Assembly (NCBI RefSeq): GCF_056746865.1
Contig: NZ_CM163382.1
Length of the DNA: 64,000 nucleotides
Strand: one strand, 5' to 3'
Below are positions 1-49,044 of this stretch, one piece after another. The translations under genes and the position numbers were made by a program. Within the stretch, counting starts at the first letter, position 1. Each line of letters opens with the position of its first letter. The notes under the pieces were generated by a model. It searched no databases. It worked only from the letters and a program-made list of their open reading frames with translations, and was not told where the DNA came from.

Positions 1-718
1 GTGCTTCCGCCTGGAGGTAACGCCGTCCGTCAGTTTTGACCTCACATTTCATGCGATGGTTGCCACTCCAGCCCAGATGTACGGCCCACACCTCGCCCTG
101 CTGTTCTGAGAAACCGGGGGCACCGGCAATCAGTGCCGGAAAATGCTCATGGGACGTGCGGCCCCGGCGGTTCTCCAGCACAAAACCGTCATGTGTGAGA
201 CGGACCCTGTGCGGCTGAAACTCACGAGTCCAGCGTCCGTGGAAGGCCATGACTTCCTCTGCCCTTTCAGCCACAGGGAGCGTGATGGCGAAGCGGTTCA
301 CCTGCCAGTCCCCTTCACGGAGGTTCGTCAGGGCATGACGCATCTTCAGCACACCGGACGATGTCAGCACCAGTTCACTGACCATGCGCAGACCCGCCAC
401 TGCATCCTCACTGGTCAGGGTGAGTGATTCTCCGGCCTGTACCACGCTGATGGTACGGAACACAGGGGACGCATCCAGCCCGTTGCGGTGTCCCTCCAGC
501 CCCGGCGAGCCAAAAAGTCCCGCGCCGTTTTCGGCCATCAGCGTCAGTGGGGTGTCGGTATCCAGACGACCATTCGCAACCGGCCTTTCCAGGCTGATAC
601 AGTCATCCGGTGAAAAGTGTTTCAGGGTGGATCCCCACCAGACAATCTCTGCATACGGGTGGGTTTTAATAATCAGGTCTGAGTGGGGACTGGTCAGCCT
701 GCGGTACATCGGTTCCAT
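1..718 (-). CDS. alpha-galactosidase-like protein (RafA-like), 5' portion only; runs off the left window edge
   Basis: Open frame on the minus strand from ATG at 716-718 (translation MEPMYRRLTSPHSDLIIKTHPYAEIVWWG...) with GGAG about 8 nt upstream, translated by hand and open to position 1. Not in the ORF track because it has no stop in the window. Family assignment is from context (LacI-type repressor plus twin operators directly upstream) and an RRGRTSHEHFP-type motif recalled from GH36 enzymes. Confidence 0.5.
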   Translation of the reverse strand, partial: MEPMYRRLTSPHSDLIIKTHPYAEIVWWGSTLKHFSPDDCISLERPVANGRLDTDTPLTLMAENGAGLFGSPGLEGHRNGLDASPVFRTISVVQAGESLTLTSEDAVAGLRMVSELVLTSSGVLKMRHALTNLREGDWQVNRFAITLPVAERAEEVMAFHGRWTREFQPHRVRLTHDGFVLENRRGRTSHEHFPALIAGAPGFSEQQGEVWAVHLGWSGNHRMKCEVKTDGRRYLQAEA

Positions 719-755
719 AAGACATCTCCGTTTTCGGGTATGCCTTACTGTTGAT

Positions 756-790
756 CCGAATCGTTTCGGATAGCAACCGAAACGATTCGA
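756..790. promoter_or_regulatory. twin palindromic operator-like sites (ccgaatcgtttcgg / ccgaaacgattcga) between the repressor gene and the alpha-galactosidase start
   Basis: Two 14-bp near-palindromes at 756-769 and 777-790 that are reverse complements of each other (13/14), separated by 7 bp, 38-70 bp upstream of the ATG at 718. Confidence 0.55.
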
Positions 791-811
791 ATTTGTGAGC
801 GGGATTAAAAA

Positions 812-1822
812 TCAGGCGGAGGGAGCAAGCGTTGTCTTGCCAGGATGAAATTCCGGCTGCCAGAGTACTTGTAGCATTTCAGGTGAAACATTCGTGACCA
901 GCTGGCGTATCATGTCGTCAATCTGACGACCGACGCGATGTCGTGTTGACTGAAGAACTGCAGCCACATCCTGTTCAATAATACTGTCCTGCGGCAGACC
1001 ATCATAAACCACAAGAGAGACGGCATCCTCTCCGGACAGATGACCGGATAACTGCAGCGACATGGCCGCGCCATCACCGATCAGGTCACTGTCGGTAATA
1101 ATGGCCGTCGGGGGAAGCGGAAGTGACATTAACTCAGTCACTGCCTGGAAACCTGAGCGTCGGGTGGGAGAGACCCGGCGTAGCCAGGTCTCAGGCAGAC
1201 CATGTTCACTCAGGGCATCGCGCCATCCCTGACGTCGTGCAGTGACATAGGCACGGGAGTTGTCCTCACTCAGCAGGGCAATTCGCTGATGGCCCAGGGC
1301 AATCAGGTGCTGTGTGGCCTGCCAGGTTCCTGCATGGTTATCAAAGTCAAACCAGGCACAGGGAAGACCGGACGGCACCTGACCGAGTGCCAGAAACGGA
1401 ATACCGGCCTCCTGCAGGTGTGTAAGACGCGGGTCATTATCCATCGTGTGCGCCACGATAAGGGCATCAACCCGGCGGCTTTCGACCAGACGCATATAGC
1501 TGTGGCTGTCAGCCCGTTCATCATCGGCTATCAGCAGTAAGTCAATATCATGGCGGGCCAGTTCCCGGCTGATACAACTGACCATATCCACAAACACACT
1601 ACTGCTGAACAGTACAGCATGTTCAGGGAAGACCAGGCCGACCGCATCGGTTTTACCGGTTTTGAGACGTCTTGCCAGGGTATTCGGGCGATAACCACGA
1701 CGCCGAGCTTCCGCTTCTACACGTGCACGGGTCGAAGCGGAAACGTCCGAAAATCCGCCAAGCGCCCGGCTGACTGTGGTGACAGAGATCCCGAGTTCGG
1801 CGGCGATAGCCTTGAGTGACAT
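812..1822 (-). CDS. LacI-family transcriptional repressor (RafR-like), 336 aa
   Basis: ORF 812..1822; N-terminal LacI-type HTH (LKAIAAELGISVTTVSRAL); AGGAG 7 nt upstream of the ATG. Confidence 0.75.
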   Translation of the reverse strand: MSLKAIAAELGISVTTVSRALGGFSDVSASTRARVEAEARRRGYRPNTLARRLKTGKTDAVGLVFPEHAVLFSSSVFVDMVSCISRELARHDIDLLLIADDERADSHSYMRLVESRRVDALIVAHTMDNDPRLTHLQEAGIPFLALGQVPSGLPCAWFDFDNHAGTWQATQHLIALGHQRIALLSEDNSRAYVTARRQGWRDALSEHGLPETWLRRVSPTRRSGFQAVTELMSLPLPPTAIITDSDLIGDGAAMSLQLSGHLSGEDAVSLVVYDGLPQDSIIEQDVAAVLQSTRHRVGRQIDDMIRQLVTNVSPEMLQVLWQPEFHPGKTTLAPSA

Positions 1823-2156
1823 ATTTTCTCCTGCGGATAACTGAACAGCCCTGTCCCTGATGCGGGTGATCCGGGCAACAAACCTGACAGAGACGCCTGC
1901 ATAAGTGGTCGCGCTGTACCAGTATGAGCCTCCATCATCCTGATTTGTGTATTAACTTTCAATACCGGAGGACGATTTGATTACCGGTTGTTAGCAGGAG
2001 TGCGAATATTAGACCGACGGTGGAGATCTAAGACTCAGTGAGCATAGCGATACACTATATTACTGTAATTAAGCCAGTAAACTTCCTGTTCACTGGCTTA
2101 AACGCTAATGATGTATGCAGTTGAACAAGCTTTTAAACTAATGATTAATTGATATA

Positions 2157-3245
2157 TAGACTGGCCCCCTGAATCTCCAGACAATCAATATCACTTAAAT
2201 AAGTGATAGTCTTAATACTAGTTTCTAGACTAGTCATTGGAGAATAGATGATTGATGTCTTAGGGCCGGAGAAACGCAGACGGCGTACTACACAGGAAAA
2301 GATCGCTATTGTTCAGCAGAGCTTTGAACCGGGAATGACGGTCTCCCTTGTTGCCCGGGGATGGGGAGTAAGCTTAGTCAGCCGTTGTCTCCGGGTGTCG
2401 CGTGCGCAGTTGCACGTCATTCTCAGACGAACCGATGACTGGAAAGATGGTCGCCGCAGCCGTCACTCAGATGATACGGATGTGCTTCTCCGTATACACC
2501 ATGTTATCGGAGAGCTGCCCACGTATGGTTATCGTCGGGTATGGGCGCTGCTTCGCAGACAGGCCGAACTTGATGGTATGCCTGCTATCAATGCCAAACG
2601 TGTTTACCGGATCATGCGCCAGAATGCGCTGTTGCTTGAGCGAAAAACCGCTGTACCGCCATCGAAACGGGCACATACTGGCAAAGTGGCCGTGAAAGAA
2701 AGCAATCAACGATGGTGCTCTGACGGGTTCGAGTTCCGCTGTGATAACGGAGAAAAACTGGGGGTCACGTTCGCGCTGGACTGCTGTGACCGTGAGGCAC
2801 TGCACTGGGCGGTCACTACGGGCGGCTTCGACAGTGAAACAGTACAGGACGTCATGCTGGGAGCGGTGGAACGCCGCTTCGGCAGCGAGCTTCCGACATC
2901 TCCAGTGGAGTGGCTGACGGATAATGGTTCATGCTACCGGGCTAATGAAACACGCCAGTTCGCCCGGATGCTGGGACTTGAACCGAAGAACACGGCGGTG
3001 CGGAGTCCGGAGAGTAACGGCATAGCAGAGAGCTTCGTGAAAACGATAAAGCGTGATTACATCAGTATCATGCCCAAACCAGACGGGTTAACGGCAGCAA
3101 AGAACCTTGCAGAGGCGTTCGAGCATTATAACGAATGGCATCCGCATAGTGCACTGGGTTATCGCTCGCCACGGGAATATCTACGGCAGCGGGCCAGTAA
3201 TGGGTTAAGTGATAACAGGTGTCTGGAAATATAGGGGCAAATCCA
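2157..3245 (+). mobile_element. IS2 derivative with an internal deletion of about 242 bp (1089 bp here against about 1331 bp for intact IS2); no 5-bp target-site duplication
   Basis: Left end TAGACTGGCCCCCTGAATCTCCAGACAA at 2157 and right end GGGGCAAATCCA ending at 3245 match the IS2 termini as I recall them. Flanks gatata / atggcg are not a direct repeat. Confidence 0.85.
2248..3234 (+). CDS. IS2 transposase, in-frame fusion of the first ~37 codons of orfA (InsC) to orfB (InsD) created by the internal deletion; 328 aa
   Basis: ORF begins [37 protein letters not shown] (InsC N-terminus) and continues [20 protein letters not shown]... (InsD). The junction lies at a GCCCGG motif; the full identity of the short repeat on the two sides is from the remembered IS2 sequence. 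Confidence 0.8.
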
Positions 3246-3440
3246 ATGGCGCAGATACGCTTGCGGATCGATACCATTCAGACAGCAGGTCCGTTCACTA
3301 CCGTAATCGCTGCCGAAGAACACATTGATTGCCCCTCAATAATCCTGCCGTCAACGTCAAAATTGCTGGTCGGGCTCGACTTATTTAATTGTGTAAACAG
3401 GGCCTCTCAGCGAAAGGCCCTTATGCATCACCTGACGTCG

Positions 3441-4007
3441 TTAAAAGTCACTACACCCAAGATGACGTTCAATGGCACCATGCGATTCAATGTAAGCCTG
3501 GGCCGTCTGTTCCAGTACACCAGGCTCAGCGTTGTATGTGTTAGCTGCATCAAATACCAACGACAGCACTTCAGGATACACAACCAGATGTGTAATGGAG
3601 TTATCTTCACCCAATACTTTTCCCCACGCCTGCTCAATCAGATTTCTGAGAGCCACCACCTCACGACTCTTACACCAGACATCGTTATTAAGTAGCAGTA
3701 CCATAAGATAAGGAGTGGTATCGTTAGCCACAGCTTCCCTACTCCAGAGATAATATAAAGGGGCGGGCTCAACAGATTTATCTTTACGTCGCTTGCACTG
3801 CAAATATTCAGAAATTAGTCTATGCAGTTCACCAGTAAAATCAGCCATCAGAGAGGGAATTGCCTTGTTCATACCTGGGCAAGGTATTAATTTAAATTGT
3901 AATAATTTAATTTTAGGATGTGTAGCTGCAGCCCGATACAGAGTTGCAAGGACATACTTTTGCCAGAGGGCGTTACAGGAAAGCTTAACGTTTGATTCTG
4001 TATACAT
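3441..4007 (-). CDS. hypothetical protein, 188 aa, co-transcribed with the upstream Gp2-like gene (27-bp gap)
   Basis: ORF 3441..4007; AAGGTG 8 nt upstream of the ATG; no recognisable motif. Confidence 0.5.
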   Translation of the reverse strand: MYTESNVKLSCNALWQKYVLATLYRAAATHPKIKLLQFKLIPCPGMNKAIPSLMADFTGELHRLISEYLQCKRRKDKSVEPAPLYYLWSREAVANDTTPYLMVLLLNNDVWCKSREVVALRNLIEQAWGKVLGEDNSITHLVVYPEVLSLVFDAANTYNAEPGVLEQTAQAYIESHGAIERHLGCSDF

Positions 4008-4034
4008 AATAAATCACCTTACAGTTACAATAGG

Positions 4035-4649
4035 TCAAAAACCGCTGTAGCCAAAGTTACGCTGGCCTGATGCTTTAGTGTCGAGCTTCGTCAGATAATC
4101 CAGACGTGCCAATAAGCGCTGATATTGCTCAGGGAAATCAGGATCGTTAATATCCAGGATGTAACGTCCATTAGCAGGGAAATGAACTAGTCCCTGGTGA
4201 TCTTCCAGTTCTAACCCTAAGGCACTGTACCAGGCTCCGGTAATTAACCCTCTCAGGGTGTCAGAGCGCTCATAGTCTCCCAGGTGGTAATAGGCGTCTT
4301 TGTTAAAAAAAAGGCAGACGTGATAATGACATTTAAAGGACTGCGTATATTCTTTCGCCCAGATAATACAAACCGACGTTGCGTAGGTGCGTTTGCCTTG
4401 TTGTTTTTTACGGTGTTGATCTGCATTAATTTTCGCATTCAGCGAGTTACGGAAACGAGATATCTCTCCGGGACTCAGGTTAGGAAAACAGGTAATGGTA
4501 TCCCCGTTGTCAATCACGGGAGGATAATGGAGATCCACCCGTATTGCCGTTATTCTGGGATGTTTCTGGAAGAGGTTATTCACCTGGTTTCTTATTTTTA
4601 ACCCGTGAGCCTCATGACATTCACCGTAAAGAGTTTCAATCGTAATCAT
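4035..4649 (-). CDS. YagK/YfjJ-type (inovirus Gp2-like) protein with an HUH-type motif, 204 aa
   Basis: ORF 4035..4649; motif KCHYHVCLFF (H-hydrophobic-H) followed by tyrosines (YYHLGDY); AAGGA upstream. Family call is from memory of similar proteins in P4-like cryptic elements. Confidence 0.55.
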   Translation of the reverse strand: MITIETLYGECHEAHGLKIRNQVNNLFQKHPRITAIRVDLHYPPVIDNGDTITCFPNLSPGEISRFRNSLNAKINADQHRKKQQGKRTYATSVCIIWAKEYTQSFKCHYHVCLFFNKDAYYHLGDYERSDTLRGLITGAWYSALGLELEDHQGLVHFPANGRYILDINDPDFPEQYQRLLARLDYLTKLDTKASGQRNFGYSGF

Positions 4650-5030
4650 GTTAATATTCCTTTTGCTTTCAGAGATAAGCTAATAGTTAACCTACCCAAT
4701 ACACAACAGAAGCAGATATTAATATTCGTATCAGTAGTTCCCAGAGGGATATATAACCCTCTGGGCGTCAATTAAGAAAAACGCTACTGCCTATTGTTAC
4801 ATTAGAGAACAGGATGATGTTACACAGTTACATTAGAACGTTCTAAAACATTAAACAGAGTTATGATCTACACACAACTAATTATTTGGTATCAGAATAC
4901 CATTAGCTCTATTAGTACATCATATCCATCATTACACATATACTATACATCACAGATATAATATATATTACCTATCCAACGCACATGTATTTATAACTCC
5001 ATTGCCAATAGCTACAAGGACTATAAAATG

Positions 5031-5591
5031 TTACTCTGCAGTTAGATCAACAATACCTTTATCCCAGTGTCTTTTTACAGTGGATAAACTGATGCTTAAT
5101 TTTCTGGCTGTTTGTGACTGACTGAACCCCTGCAATTTCAACTGTCTGATATTTTTACTATGAATACTCCCTTCTTTCCTTCCTGGTTTTCTTTTAATTT
5201 TCCGGATACTGATGTCGGGAATTTTTCCTCTAATATCTGTAGGTAAAATCATCCCGGTGAGTACCACAGGAATATCATCACCATCCGGCAACTCTGATGA
5301 CGTAAAAAAGCAAATATTAATACCTTGTCTGATACTTAAAGATAAAACCTCCTGTATTTTTTCCGGCGTATTACCAAAACAAGTTAACGATTTAGTAATC
5401 AGAATATCACCCCTTTGCATATCCTGCGTCAGGAGTCGAACTAACCGTTTTCTGTCTGCCAGAGTATAATCCGGGCGACCCAATTCGCCTGTTAACTGCA
5501 ATAGTGGTTCTTTAAAATATCTCTGAATCATGGATTTTAAGCGATTAAGTTTTGACCATTTTTCAGAGTCTATGTATGCAAAACTCGCCAT
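5031..5591 (-). CDS. serine-recombinase (resolvase)-like DNA-binding protein, probably catalytically inactive, 186 aa
   Basis: ORF 5031..5591. GDILITKSLTCFGNT aligns by eye to the resolvase GDxLVVxxLDRLGRS motif but lacks the two Arg; N-terminus FAYIDSEK instead of YxRVSTxxQ; C-terminal HTH (TARKLSISLSTVKRHW). Confidence 0.5.
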   Translation of the reverse strand: MASFAYIDSEKWSKLNRLKSMIQRYFKEPLLQLTGELGRPDYTLADRKRLVRLLTQDMQRGDILITKSLTCFGNTPEKIQEVLSLSIRQGINICFFTSSELPDGDDIPVVLTGMILPTDIRGKIPDISIRKIKRKPGRKEGSIHSKNIRQLKLQGFSQSQTARKLSISLSTVKRHWDKGIVDLTAE

Positions 5592-5812
5592 AATGCCTCA
5601 AACTGGTGTCATGAATTAATTATTGAACCTGTTTTTTCCTGAGTCGCATTACTCTTTTCTAAGGGAGGCTCTCCAGATACATCGGAAAAGTACTCGATAA
5701 AAGAGTTGGCCACTCCCGGGTAATGATTGCTCTCTTTAACCTCAGAAAGCGGTTTCTGTTCATCATTTACACCACGATTTCTGGGTTATGAATAAATCTA
5801 CGCGGGCCATAA

Positions 5813-6559
5813 TCATTCATCTTCAAATGGGTTAATAATAATAACATCTCCACCTGTTCTGGAACTTTGTGAAACTTCCTCTGTTCTCAGAACAGGCACT
5901 ATTACAGCCTTATTATTGATATAAAAAATCGGAATATGAAAAGTACAAAATCCTGTACTACGAATCTGATGTCGCCTCACTGTTTCTTTCGTACCATACT
6001 CAATCAACTCATCTATCGGCAGGCAAACTGAATTGCAAAAGTCAAAAAAATAATCCCCAAAAACACTGGTTTTAATCAGAATGGTTTTATAAAACCCTCC
6101 TGCACGATTCAGGGTATGGGAAACTTTTCTGTTCGTGTAAATACAAATTGCCTTCTCAACTTTATAATATTCCAGCATTAAGGTCGCATTCTCTTTAATT
6201 CCCTTTTTCTCTGCAACTCCCATAGCATTTCTGGTGCTTTCATGAGGAAATATCTTTCTATCGAGAACATCATATTCATATTTGATATGCGATTTATAAA
6301 TGCTATGAAAAAACTCTCCTTTTGTTATTTCAGGCTTTGTCCGTTGCACAAATGGTTCCTCATTAAAAAACTGACGTAGCTTATCCTCTATATCAGTTAT
6401 AGCAGCAATATTTTCATTTATCCTGTTTAAAACAGGAGCCCCTAGCTTTAAACACTCTTTAATCGCTGCTGAAAATGAGCATTTTTTTAAATGCTGATAC
6501 TTTTTAATTACATCAGCTTCATATGTTTCTGCAAGAGAGAAAGAGACACGTTTCATCAT
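5813..6559 (-). CDS. hypothetical protein, 248 aa; N-terminal ~45 aa resemble a ribbon-helix-helix DNA-binding fold, C-terminal ~200 aa unassigned
   Basis: ORF 5813..6559; strong RBS AAGGAG 5 nt before ATGATG; AT-rich coding sequence; N-terminus KRVSFSLAETYEADVIKKYQ...FSAAIKECLKLG has a strand-helix-helix pattern. Confidence 0.55.
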   Translation of the reverse strand: MMKRVSFSLAETYEADVIKKYQHLKKCSFSAAIKECLKLGAPVLNRINENIAAITDIEDKLRQFFNEEPFVQRTKPEITKGEFFHSIYKSHIKYEYDVLDRKIFPHESTRNAMGVAEKKGIKENATLMLEYYKVEKAICIYTNRKVSHTLNRAGGFYKTILIKTSVFGDYFFDFCNSVCLPIDELIEYGTKETVRRHQIRSTGFCTFHIPIFYINNKAVIVPVLRTEEVSQSSRTGGDVIIINPFEDE

Positions 6560-6621
6560 GAAACTCCTTTTTAATTATAAAATTAAAATATAGAAATATA
6601 TATTATTCTGATACTATAAGG

Positions 6622-6849
6622 TTAATACTGACTAATCCACCACAATAGATCACTTAATAACCACCCACAGGATTTCTTTCCAATAGTTTTACGTGGCGGG
6701 AATTTTCCTTCACGTTCCAGTTTCCAGGCTTGTGAACGAGAAATAGACGTAATTTTCTGGCGTTCCTTTTCTCGTACCAGTCTGTCACAGGTGTATCCAT
6801 AGATCTTCAAAATTGATAAACGGTTCTCATCTCTTAACGGCTTCCACAT
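6622..6849 (-). CDS. AlpA-family prophage transcriptional regulator / excisionase-like protein, 75 aa
   Basis: ORF 6622..6849; SRSQAWKLEREGKFPPRKTIGKKSCGWLLSDLLWW resembles the AlpA HTH core; AGGAGA RBS. Confidence 0.65.
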   Translation of the reverse strand: MWKPLRDENRLSILKIYGYTCDRLVREKERQKITSISRSQAWKLEREGKFPPRKTIGKKSCGWLLSDLLWWISQY

Positions 6850-7628
6850 ATTGCTCTCCTTATATATTCATGATTTTCAGATTGTATATGCATGTGAGCT
6901 GCTCAAATCACTACATCTATCTGTAGTGGTATGCTGTTGAACAGCACCAGCAACTCACGAGCAAAACAATACATTTGCACAACCAAGAAATCAAATTGCG
7001 AGAAATGATTTAATTAACTGACTTCTAATAACACAATAACAACAAAGAAAGTCACAATATAAAAATAACTTAAACAATGCTTTTTGGTATACAAAATAAA
7101 AATCAAAATCACAATATTCGTAGGTTATTTTATGCAGACAAAAACAAAAAAAATCTTGTTATAATCTATGATATCAAGAGGAGGGGTAGTGACCAAAAAT
7201 TCTCCCCAGAAAAGCCCCCACAACATTAGTTTGAAAACGTGACGAAGTTCACAAAATTATCTTCTGGCGATAATAGAACTTGTAAGAGGGAGTTGATTTT
7301 TGCCAACTTTCTAAAGCTAAAGTGCAGACAAAAGATAATAATTGAATGAAAACGATACATATTTTCAGATGAAAGTGACGTGACTGTAGAGGGCTATAAC
7401 CGTAAAATCATTTGCGTCCTGAGCAATATGCAACAAAAGGGAATGCTCGTAAAAAAATCAGGAATAAACGCTAAGGATATCGTATTAGATTCAGCATCGT
7501 ATAATGCCACTGCATAACTGATTCCCATTTCGTAGAGGCTGTTAACTCTGTATCAATGTCCTGACAAAGGACTGTATCAAGTTTCTCTACTGGAAACAGC
7601 TATGCAATAGACGGAAGAATTTAACATT

Positions 7629-9233
7629 ATGGTAACTAAAAAGGTAAAAACAAACCACCCGTACTATCGTGTTTTATCCGGCACCTCCATGCCGTTTCCC
7701 CACATACATGAAGCTGTTTCCGAACAGTTGCTTCTACTCATTTTCAAAGCACGCAGATTGTATCTGGATCCAGAATATCGTCCTTGGTTTGATGAACAAC
7801 ATCGGATTCTCTCGGCATTACGCGCTAACACAAAACTCCAAAGTATTTTAGAGAAAAACAGAGAGAACTACTCCATAAGTGAGACCGATAATCCACTATC
7901 TAAAGATCTGTATGCTGCTTTTCAGGTTATGTGCCATTTATACAATGGTTTTGATAACAGACTCGTCAGCCTGAAAACCTGGGGAGATATGAACAGGGAA
8001 CCAACAGCAAAATTTGTCGGCCAAAATAGTGGTGGCTGGAAAACACCTGAGATGGAAGAATTCGTCAGAAACGATTTGTTCAATATTCTGACAGATTGTA
8101 AAGCTCATTGCTCACCACTTCCCGCTCTGGTTCGACAAGGATATTGCCATCAGGATCTTTCTGTTGCGCACTCATGTACTAAAGAATTACTGGAACAACT
8201 GAACCGATACCATCAAATTGATGAATCAGCGATACTTGCCAGAACCCTTGGTTTGGCTATTAACAACTGCTATCACTCAGAAACAGAGATTCCTGAATGG
8301 CTTTCTCCTTTTGAAAATGAATACAAAAGTCCCTGGAATTGTGAGAAACCAGATACTAACGATGTGAGTAAACTTAGAAAACAATTGCTAACAATCGGGC
8401 GTACAGAATTCGTGGACAAAATGTTTTCGCTAGCCAACAAAAATGCAACAAAGATAATATATGATGGATACGTTAAACTTTATGCTCTGGAAATATATGA
8501 ATGGTTAAATAAATTAGTGCAATATTTTAAAGGAAATGATTTTATTCGTTACACCTGGAAGTTCACAACAATTATTTCCGATGAAAGTGACACGATTGAA
8601 AACACCACCGCATGGGAAAAAGACTATTGTCAAATCACTATACAGCGTGATGAACTTCTGAAACTGATTTATACCAATACCCTGCAGGATGCAGCAATGA
8701 ATCTTGCTGATTGCCTGCAACAGGCATACACAGAACCGTTAAAAATGGAAATAAATTATCCAGGAATAAACATTGATGCAAAAGAGCGTAAAATTAGAAA
8801 ATCTATTGAATTCAGGAGCGAACTGAATAACTTCACAAACATCATGAAACAACTGGAAATATTTGAAAAATGGTATAACGCCAATAAAATTCTGTTGGTA
8901 AGTAACAAAAAGATACGTACAGAAAAGATTGACGTGAATATTCGTCTTGCAGGACTAAAAGGCTATGATCTGAATGAAGGTATACCTGATGGTCAGGGAC
9001 GCAGAATTAAAGATGGTGTAAATGAACTTGTCAAGGCAGATGGCAGTCTACAACTTCCACAAGATATCAGTGACACTTCGCTTAACCGTTACCGTCAAGC
9101 AGTTCAACACATTATTAAGGATGAGATCGACACGTTGCTGATAGCACAGAGGGAAAAAAATAAAATAAATCCATATAGCGAAGATAGATACTCGATACGA
9201 CCTTTATGGGGAAAATGTCTGGTCGAACAGTAA
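7629..9233 (+). CDS. hypothetical protein, 534 aa, no domain recognisable by eye; integrase-proximal cargo
   Basis: ORF 7629..9233; GGAAG upstream of the ATG; AT-rich; preceded by a 780-bp AT-rich non-coding region. Confidence 0.6.
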   Translation: MVTKKVKTNHPYYRVLSGTSMPFPHIHEAVSEQLLLLIFKARRLYLDPEYRPWFDEQHRILSALRANTKLQSILEKNRENYSISETDNPLSKDLYAAFQVMCHLYNGFDNRLVSLKTWGDMNREPTAKFVGQNSGGWKTPEMEEFVRNDLFNILTDCKAHCSPLPALVRQGYCHQDLSVAHSCTKELLEQLNRYHQIDESAILARTLGLAINNCYHSETEIPEWLSPFENEYKSPWNCEKPDTNDVSKLRKQLLTIGRTEFVDKMFSLANKNATKIIYDGYVKLYALEIYEWLNKLVQYFKGNDFIRYTWKFTTIISDESDTIENTTAWEKDYCQITIQRDELLKLIYTNTLQDAAMNLADCLQQAYTEPLKMEINYPGINIDAKERKIRKSIEFRSELNNFTNIMKQLEIFEKWYNANKILLVSNKKIRTEKIDVNIRLAGLKGYDLNEGIPDGQGRRIKDGVNELVKADGSLQLPQDISDTSLNRYRQAVQHIIKDEIDTLLIAQREKNKINPYSEDRYSIRPLWGKCLVEQ

Positions 9234-9315
9234 CTCACTGAGAAAGGGGATAGCAGTTCGCTATCCCCAAAGGAGACTTTCCAGCAAGATCTCAAAAAAT
9301 GAGACACTCAGCAAA

Positions 9316-47995: not shown

Positions 47996-48124
47996 GTCAT
48001 CAGTCTTAGCGCGCCTTCACGGCACTTTATTAATTCCTTGAACGAATATTTACTGCCATTTCATTCACGTCTATTCTTAATTTGCTGCTTTAAAAACAAG
48101 TGATTGAGCAAAATTGAGGCAAAA

Positions 48125-48490
48125 ATGGACTGGTATCTGAAAGTACTAAAAAATTATGTCGGTTTCCGGGGTCGTGCGCGGCGCAAAGAGTACTGGATGT
48201 TTATTCTGGTCAACATCATCTTTACGTTCGTGCTGGGGCTGCTGGATAAAATGTTAGGCTGGCAACGCGCTGGTGGCGAAGGCATCCTGACAACAATCTA
48301 CGGTATTCTGGTGTTTTTACCGTGGTGGGCGGTTCAGTTCCGCCGCCTGCACGACACCGACCGCTCGGCGTGGTGGGCACTGCTGTTCTTAATCCCGTTT
48401 ATCGGCTGGCTTATTATCATCGTCTTTAACTGCCAGGCGGGTACGCCAGGCGAAAACCGCTTTGGACCTGATCCAAAACTGGAACCTTAA
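48125..48490 (+). CDS. yhaH: DUF805 inner-membrane protein YhaH, 121 aa
   Basis: ORF 48104..48490; start at MDWYLKVLKNYVGFRGRARRKEYW. Confidence 0.8.
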   Translation: MDWYLKVLKNYVGFRGRARRKEYWMFILVNIIFTFVLGLLDKMLGWQRAGGEGILTTIYGILVFLPWWAVQFRRLHDTDRSAWWALLFLIPFIGWLIIIVFNCQAGTPGENRFGPDPKLEP

Positions 48491-49044
48491 AACAAATCTG
48501 CTCGCCGGATGTCTGACTCATCCGGCTTTTATCATCATGTTGATGAATGAATAATTTACTAATGTTTAGTTAAAATATTTCAATGTCGTTATATAAATTA
48601 CATATAAAAAACAACCATATATTTATCTTAAATATTAAAACCTTTATAACATCCGAAAAAGAAAGATACGAATAGCATTTACACAATACCCGGAATAGAC
48701 TTTCGTCACTTTTAATTAAAGGGATGTTTTTATGCAGTGGTATTTATCCGTATTAAAAAATTATGTTGGTTTCTCTGGTCGCGCACGTCGTAAAGAGTAC
48801 TGGATGTTTACTCTGATTAACGCCATCGTCGGCGCTATTATCAATGTCATTCAATTGATTTTAGGTTTAGAGTTTCCGTTCCTTTCTCTCATTTACCTGG
48901 CAGCAACAATCATTCCGGTCATTGCTCTGTGCGTTCGTCGTCTGCATGATACTGACCGTTCAGGTGCGTGGGCGCTTCTCTATCTGGTACCGATCATTGG
49001 CTGGTTAGTTCTGTTTGTATTTGCCTGTTGGTAATGACTCCAAC

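Follow-up and report, generated by a model that had tools for sequence, protein, structure and literature searches.

A long AT-rich gap between alpA and an orphan cargo gene of an Escherichia coli island as a probable divergent regulatory region with a conserved CRP-type palindrome

In Gram-negative phage-inducible chromosomal islands (PICIs), AlpA is the helper-induced and autoregulated master regulator, and the activity of a PICI alpA promoter has been assayed on a fragment reaching from -449 to +50 (PMC11773190). Elements of the PICI type carry accessory or immunity genes at their ends (PMC11364771), and the alpA promoter of the Shewanella element CP4So is bound and repressed by H-NS (PMC5148205). 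The present analysis deals with the gap between alpA and a gene for a protein of 534 amino acids (aa), at positions 6850-7628 of a 64-kb stretch of an E. coli chromosome, which was analysed as a whole and is called the window. Judged by its gene content, the surrounding DNA is probably an integrative island of the CP4-57/PICI-like type at ileX, to which the gap belongs. The favoured reading, to which a probability of about 0.6 was given, is that the gap is a non-coding regulatory region of this island, from which two genes are transcribed back to back in divergent directions.

The alpA gene (75 aa, minus strand) occupies 6622-6849 with its start codon at 6849, and its product matches the Pfam family Phage_AlpA with E = 2.5e-14. 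The open reading frame (ORF) of 534 aa extends from 7629 to 9233 on the plus strand. No gene is annotated in the 779 bp between them, and no annotation lies under the gap among the matches listed for 259 matching E. coli genomes. The GC content of the gap is 34%, compared with 39.5% for the island and 50% for the window, and only 0.9% of all segments of 779 nt in the 64 kb are as AT-rich. Its core (6960-7172) has the joint lowest GC content in the window, and the gap contains 21 A/T tracts of at least 4 bases versus 13.7 +/- 3.3 in shuffled sequences. A preliminary description had spoken of an unusually long, AT-rich, non-coding region of 780 bp within foreign DNA, and this was borne out. Silencing by H-NS, which had also been suggested, fits the composition of the gap, has a precedent at an alpA promoter (PMC5148205) and is regarded as plausible. 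A second stretch as AT-rich as the core of the gap (23.5% GC over 200 nt) was noticed at about 48520-48770, between the ORFs 48104-48490 and 48732-49034.

The module of alpA, a long gap, a gene for 534-545 aa and a gene for 198 aa was found in three deep E. coli lineages. In most copies the module is followed by the integrase gene, which is absent from some of the copies at thrW. Matches to the gap were counted among 5426 complete E. coli genomes. The window type, called lineage W, was present in 259 of these genomes with 95-100% identity, and its carriers include the strains W2-5 and APEC O2-211. Full-length matches to lineage A (L002, L005, L026 and L027) were found in 71 genomes, and matches to lineage B (L011, L017, L021 and L022, with the sublineage L029 at 90% identity) in 348, located at ileX or thrW. 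Three gap copies of lineage B reside on plasmids, e.g. at 72187-72876 of NZ_CP061330.1, a plasmid of 127 kb from E. coli EC93, and thus the module has moved onto plasmids.

The cargo proteins of lineage W are only 57-59% identical to those of lineages A and B, and because of this distance neutral DNA in the gap is expected to be saturated with substitutions. The length of the gap is 691-779 bp across the lineages. Sensitive pairwise blastn comparisons of the gaps between lineages yielded only short collinear blocks, and most of the interior could not be aligned; lineages A and B share gap positions 6-82 at 78% identity. Conservation was scored in an alignment of 12 gap sequences from the three lineages, and the sublineage of lineage B was compared in addition. 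The survival of short collinear blocks in otherwise saturated sequence supports the reading as a regulatory region. The elements on which it is built are the following:

6850-6872, minus strand: translation-initiation region of alpA with the Shine-Dalgarno sequence AGGAG (CTCCT on the plus strand, 6856-6860)
6966-6994, minus strand: predicted sigma-70 promoter P_alpA, with the -35 element TTGATT (6994-6989), a spacer of 17 nt and the -10 element TATTGT (6971-6966)
6960-7172, no strand: A-tract-rich core of 24% GC between the divergent promoters, a candidate H-NS nucleation or curved-DNA segment
7135-7165, plus strand: predicted sigma-70 promoter P1, with the -35 element cAGACA (7135-7140), a spacer of 19 nt and the extended -10 element TGtTATAAT (7157-7165)
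7238-7253, no strand: CRP-consensus palindrome cGTGA-CGAAGT-TCACA, with one mismatch in the window

The translation-initiation region of alpA is among the most conserved blocks and forms the start of an alpA-proximal block of about 80 nt. The alpA genes of other E. coli islands match the window only to about 20 nt upstream of the start codon. P_alpA has the sequence TTGATT-17-TATTGT in lineage W, TTGACT-17-TACCTT in lineage A and TTGACC-17-TACATT in lineage B, and the TCAA of its -35 element is invariant in the alignment. Its transcription start site (TSS) is predicted at about 6959, which would result in a 5'-untranslated region (5'-UTR) of about 110 nt; the distances from the predicted TSS to the ATG of alpA are 110, 117 and 114 nt in lineages W, A and B, respectively. 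Within the predicted 5'-UTR, lineage W contains two palindromes, CACTACA-N6-TGTAGTG (6908-6933) and TGCTGTT-G-AACAGCA (6934-6948), that lineages A and B lack; they may form hairpins or serve as operators.

On the plus strand, a good -10-like TATAAT near 7155-7170 had already been pointed out in the preliminary description. It is indeed present at 7160-7165, is preceded by TGT and thereby forms an extended -10 element, and it coincides with the predicted promoter P1, which faces the 534-aa gene and is kept in three lineages. The counterparts at the homologous place are TTGACA-17-TAGTAT in lineage A and TTGACT-17-TATAAA in lineage B, and the GAC core of the -35 element is common to the lineages. 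Close variants of the window type have TATGAT in place of TATAAT. The TSS of P1 is predicted at about 7172, and across the three lineages it would be 312-323 nt away from the ATG of alpA. The sequence of the core between the two promoters is not conserved between lineages, and its length is roughly kept. Taken together, -35/-10 hexamers with a spacer of 16-19 nt are found on both strands at homologous positions in all three lineages.

The best-conserved interior block of the gap is the palindrome at 7238-7253. The perfect form TGTGA-N6-TCACA, which is the CRP consensus, was found in L025, a variant of the window type, and in all sequences retrieved for lineages A and B, in total in 10 of the 13 sequences examined, and in lineage B it has the form TGTGAT-N4-ATCACA. 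Among eight distinct versions, only one of the 10 half-site positions is variable, compared with all six positions of the spacer (hypergeometric p = 0.0009). By chance, about two matches to TGTGA-N6-TCACA with one mismatch are expected per 64 kb, and a second conserved CRP-like site was not found in the gap. The centre of the palindrome is located 104-111 nt from the -35 element of P1 and at +68 to +74 relative to the predicted TSS. Among the lineages, the distance from alpA to the -35 element of P1 differs by no more than about 16 bp, and so does the distance from alpA to the palindrome. From this sequence pattern we infer that CRP binds at the palindrome.

These results bear on the alternative that the gap is mostly a decaying, H-NS-coated spacer, of which only about 110 nt next to alpA and about 85 nt next to the 534-aa gene are functional, so that the interior "promoter" and the palindrome would be incidental or mere ballast for H-NS or CRP binding. 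An interior that is mostly unalignable between lineages and a length varying from 691 to 779 bp would be in line with such a spacer, as would the extreme composition of the gap and the fact that AT-rich DNA yields promoter-like hexamers by chance. However, fixed half-sites around a freely varying spacer are hard to obtain without selection, and nearly constant distances from alpA to P1 and to the palindrome are not what a decaying spacer would lead one to expect. The spacer is thus thought to be unlikely, albeit with an appreciable residual weight.

It was also considered that the palindrome might be the operator of a dimeric regulator other than CRP, i.e. a protein of the island or of a helper phage, or AlpA itself. 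The sequence equals the CRP consensus and all E. coli hosts possess CRP, which speaks against this idea, although the palindrome is off the canonical distance for activation by CRP and in PICIs alpA is induced by helper phages via unknown factors (PMC11773190). AlpA is the sole candidate regulator that is common to all three islands. Excisionase-type regulators such as AlpA are generally described as binders of direct repeats and not of dyads, and this counts against AlpA as well. An operator for another regulator is consequently viewed as improbable.

In the favoured reading as a divergent regulatory region, P_alpA (about 6966-6994, minus strand) would drive alpA, presumably the excision and master-regulator gene of the island, via a leader of about 110 nt. 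About 200 bp of A-tract DNA with 24% GC, which is probably curved, would separate P_alpA from P1 and be common to both promoters. P1 would most likely transcribe the orphan 534-aa cargo gene via a leader of about 457 nt in which no ORF is conserved. The putative high-affinity CRP-type site 68-74 nt downstream of the P1 start would link expression to cyclic AMP (cAMP)-CRP, and the extreme AT content would make the whole region a likely target of H-NS. Firing of the promoters, read-through from P1 into the gene, binding of CRP with the direction of its effect, and silencing by H-NS are all deduced from features of the DNA.

Several points weigh against this scenario. All promoters are consensus-based predictions, and such matches are not enriched over shuffled sequences, as 3 promoter-like hexamer pairs were found in the gap compared with 5.2 +/- 2.7 in shuffles. 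Because hexamer pairs are not above chance in such AT-rich DNA, the TATAAT alone carries little weight, and it gains weight solely from being kept at the corresponding position in diverged relatives. Owing to a deletion of 15 nt in the window lineage, the lineages do not have orthologous -10 hexamers in P1. Regarding CRP, the palindrome does not lie at a consistent class I or class II distance (-41.5, -61.5, -71.5 and so on) from any predicted promoter, and a geometry common to the three lineages was not found on either strand. An untranslated leader of 380-457 nt would be exposed to Rho, and a promoter closer to the 534-aa gene may exist and have been missed. Lastly, in CP4-57 of E. coli K-12 the 43 bp between yfjH and alpA suffice, and therefore the control of alpA alone does not account for the length of the gap.

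The preliminary description had further proposed that the gap holds the regulatory logic for the cargo gene, possibly including a small RNA or a leader peptide, and had noted a GTG-initiated mini-ORF of 16 codons after a ribosome-binding site around 7188. The corresponding feature is:

7178-7242, plus strand: GAGGAGGGG followed by the GTG mini-ORF VTKNSPQKSPHNISLKT, with a C-rich stretch inside that occurs only in lineage W

The mini-ORF was found, with GAGGAGGGG at 7178-7186 and the GTG at 7189; it has 17 codons and ends with a TGA stop at 7240-7242. Together with its C-rich tract it is restricted to lineage W; lineage A does not have it, and the ORF of lineage B is unrelated. Comparison of the gaps between lineages with tblastx did not reveal a conserved peptide in any frame, which removes the support for a leader peptide. 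The small RNA fared no better. An Rfam scan of 4500-12500 at E <= 1 gave no match in the gap, a scan of 6500-7900 detected no intrinsic terminator, and the putative leader of 469 nt (7172-7640) folds no better than shuffled sequences (z = -0.73). The consensus fold of the conserved block next to the 534-aa gene reaches only -1.85 kcal/mol, and a conserved RNA structure across the homologous islands was not found. A repeat search of the gap returned only weak two-copy matches and neither an iteron or origin signature nor tandem ToxI-like repeats; the TCACAATAT repeat is absent from close variants of the window gap. Of the proposed regulatory logic, the predicted divergent promoters and the conserved CRP-type site were thus retained, whereas a small RNA or a conserved leader peptide in the gap is unlikely.

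The same observations bear on a switch based on a leader peptide or on attenuation, or on a small RNA, in which translation of an ORF would control read-through into the 534-aa gene, for instance by masking a C-rich Rho-loading site at 7204-7225. Candidates would be the mini-ORF at 7189-7242 or an ORF that starts from the GTG of the palindrome at 7239 (VTK(I/F)TK...). In the window, a strong Shine-Dalgarno sequence precedes the mini-ORF at ideal spacing, a stretch rich in C and poor in G lies within it, and a purine-rich GA.GAG downstream of P1 is invariant in the alignment. Each lineage has some ORF from the GTG of the palindrome with similar first codons, but these ORFs have 8, 27, 36 and 99 codons without similarity beyond the palindrome, and only lineage A has a Shine-Dalgarno sequence near this GTG. 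Moreover, a perfect dyad would not be produced by coding constraint. As the ORF at 7189 with its C-rich tract is confined to the window lineage, and as neither a terminator nor a fold signal nor a tblastx match was found, this type of switch is judged to be very unlikely.

Two blocks and one isolated hexamer lie closer to the 534-aa gene:

7437-7480, plus strand: conserved block C, with GGAAAATTATCGTAA(A)TAAT...CTCAGG in lineages A and B, recognized from collinear local matches and the alignment
7500-7505, plus strand: second TATAAT, not conserved
7546-7628, plus strand: proximal leader and translation-initiation region of the 534-aa gene, conserved

Block C did not show a promoter geometry that is consistent across the lineages. 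The second TATAAT was rejected as a conserved element; variant L023 lacks four of its bases through a deletion, and lineages A and B do not have it at all. Over the last approximately 90 nt of the gap lineages A and B match one another (E = 5e-14), and the window matches partly. This block includes a direct repeat, CTGTATCAA, at 7548-7556 and 7572-7580, and a Shine-Dalgarno-like GGAAG at 7613-7617 ahead of the 534-aa gene. A convincing promoter was not found in 7546-7628. A dyad of the P2 Ogr type, TGT-N12-ACA (7549-7566), was also discarded, as it is confined to the window lineage.

The 534-aa protein is a complete orphan. It has no family match in Pfam, NCBIfam, PADLOC or PHROG, no match among solved structures and no match in a tblastn search against a phage collection, and its homologues form only 20 clusters among 5.8 billion proteins. 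A retron or defence-associated reverse transcriptase with an upstream noncoding RNA was rejected, as the protein has neither a YxDD motif nor a family match. Homologues with about 42% identity are encoded in a P2-like prophage of Klebsiella, where they lie between the genes S (tail completion) and V (baseplate), the orf30 moron site. Further homologues were found in Serratia and in another enterobacterial genome (L016). In Klebsiella, in Serratia (L012) and in L016, a divergent gene for an acidic protein of 145-150 aa is located about 340 nt upstream of the homologue; the locus of Serratia proteamaculans (L014) has no called gene upstream. The upstream regions of the homologues outside E. coli could not be aligned with the E. 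coli gap.

The acidic gene raised the question of whether the gap is the remnant of a lost gene, i.e. of this partner or of an ORF of 70-99 aa in lineage A (L002, 4646-4945; L027, 762-974). The sum of 450 and 340 nt would come near the size of the gap, and a few RefSeq genomes list the lineage-A ORF as a hypothetical protein. Yet tblastn searches with the acidic proteins of Klebsiella and Serratia against all E. coli gaps were negative, by which a remnant of the partner gene was dismissed, and tblastx between the lineages was negative as well. In L005 the lineage-A ORF is disrupted by a frameshift, and it has no homologues in other species than E. coli, so that it is probably a spurious call. 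A lost gene therefore retains only a slim chance as the origin of the gap.

The island adjoins nfeF and contains, in order, a tyrosine integrase gene, a gene for 198-208 aa, the 534-aa gene, the gap, alpA, two hypothetical genes, YfjJ/YagK-type genes and insertion sequence (IS) elements. A 3' fragment of the tRNA-Ile(CAU) gene ileX, reaching from the anticodon loop to the CCA, lies at the integrase end (11556-11602, plus strand). ARAGORN did not detect an intact tRNA in the whole 64-kb window, and the reconstituted ileX copy that should mark the far end was apparently removed where the island is truncated by IS elements. Of the genes by which islands of the PICI/CP4-57-like type are recognized, int, alpA and the ileX fragment are present; the DUF3987 (YfjI) gene was found in lineages A and B and is missing from the window copy. 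The left end of the island (about 1-3300) is broken by sequences of the IS3 family, ISEc31 and an IS5 remnant. Two tandem YagK/YfjJ-type genes lie within 3441-4649, and the copy at 3441-4007 is a weak and partial match to the family profile. The 198-208-aa gene (9316-9942, minus strand) is convergent with the cargo gene and matches phrog_7522 (function unknown) with E = 2e-129. In each of the three E. coli lineages it occurs together with the cargo gene, and it may belong to the backbone or be a partner gene.

In summary, the gap is most likely an ordinary regulatory region of foreign DNA, made mildly notable by its conserved CRP-consensus site and its orphan cargo gene. More far-reaching proposals are that P1, the CRP site and the long leader constitute a dedicated switch, or that the leader RNA is a functional partner of the cargo protein; both are doubtful and are given little credence. 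The switch could couple the carbon/cAMP state of the host and relief from H-NS silencing to the cargo gene and, via the AT-rich core, to alpA. The leader RNA could act as a sensor or an antitoxin with a structure that is too lineage-specific to be detected with three lineages. Some version of the module is carried by about one eighth of E. coli genomes. The located predicted promoters and the likely CRP input are a starting point for finding out when the cargo gene is expressed and what its protein does, and how its expression relates to the control of alpA, the excision regulator of the island.

Of the known systems, the crp gene offers a parallel for the position of the palindrome. In crp autoregulation, a CRP site downstream of the transcription start acts via a CRP-activated divergent transcript. 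Here, too, a CRP dyad lies tens of bases downstream of a predicted sigma-70 start and near candidate -10 elements on the opposite strand. In contrast to crp, the site is at +68 to +74 instead of about +40, and there is no conserved divergent promoter at a fixed distance from the palindrome. With Shewanella CP4So the locus shares a promoter region rich in A and T that precedes an excisionase gene of the alpA type. The two differ in organism, sequence and temperature logic, and H-NS binding has been shown for CP4So, whereas the gap is only a candidate. Gram-negative PICIs such as EcCIMP1 resemble the island in having alpA downstream of int as master regulator. Their promoter sequences cannot be aligned with this island, and the window island is without a primase gene. 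In contrast to them, the island has no known helper phage and is not known to be excised or induced. CP4-57 of K-12 (intA - yfjH - alpA - yfjI - yfjJ) differs in its yfjH-alpA distance of 43 bp compared with the gap of 691-779 bp, in an unrelated cargo gene and in its insertion at ssrA instead of ileX or thrW; in addition, yfjI is gone from the window copy, which IS elements have truncated. What CP4-57 and the island have in common is the order of integrase, oppositely oriented cargo gene and alpA, followed by a YfjI (DUF3987) gene, which is found in lineages A and B, and a YfjJ/YagK-type gene, which the window shares with both of these lineages.
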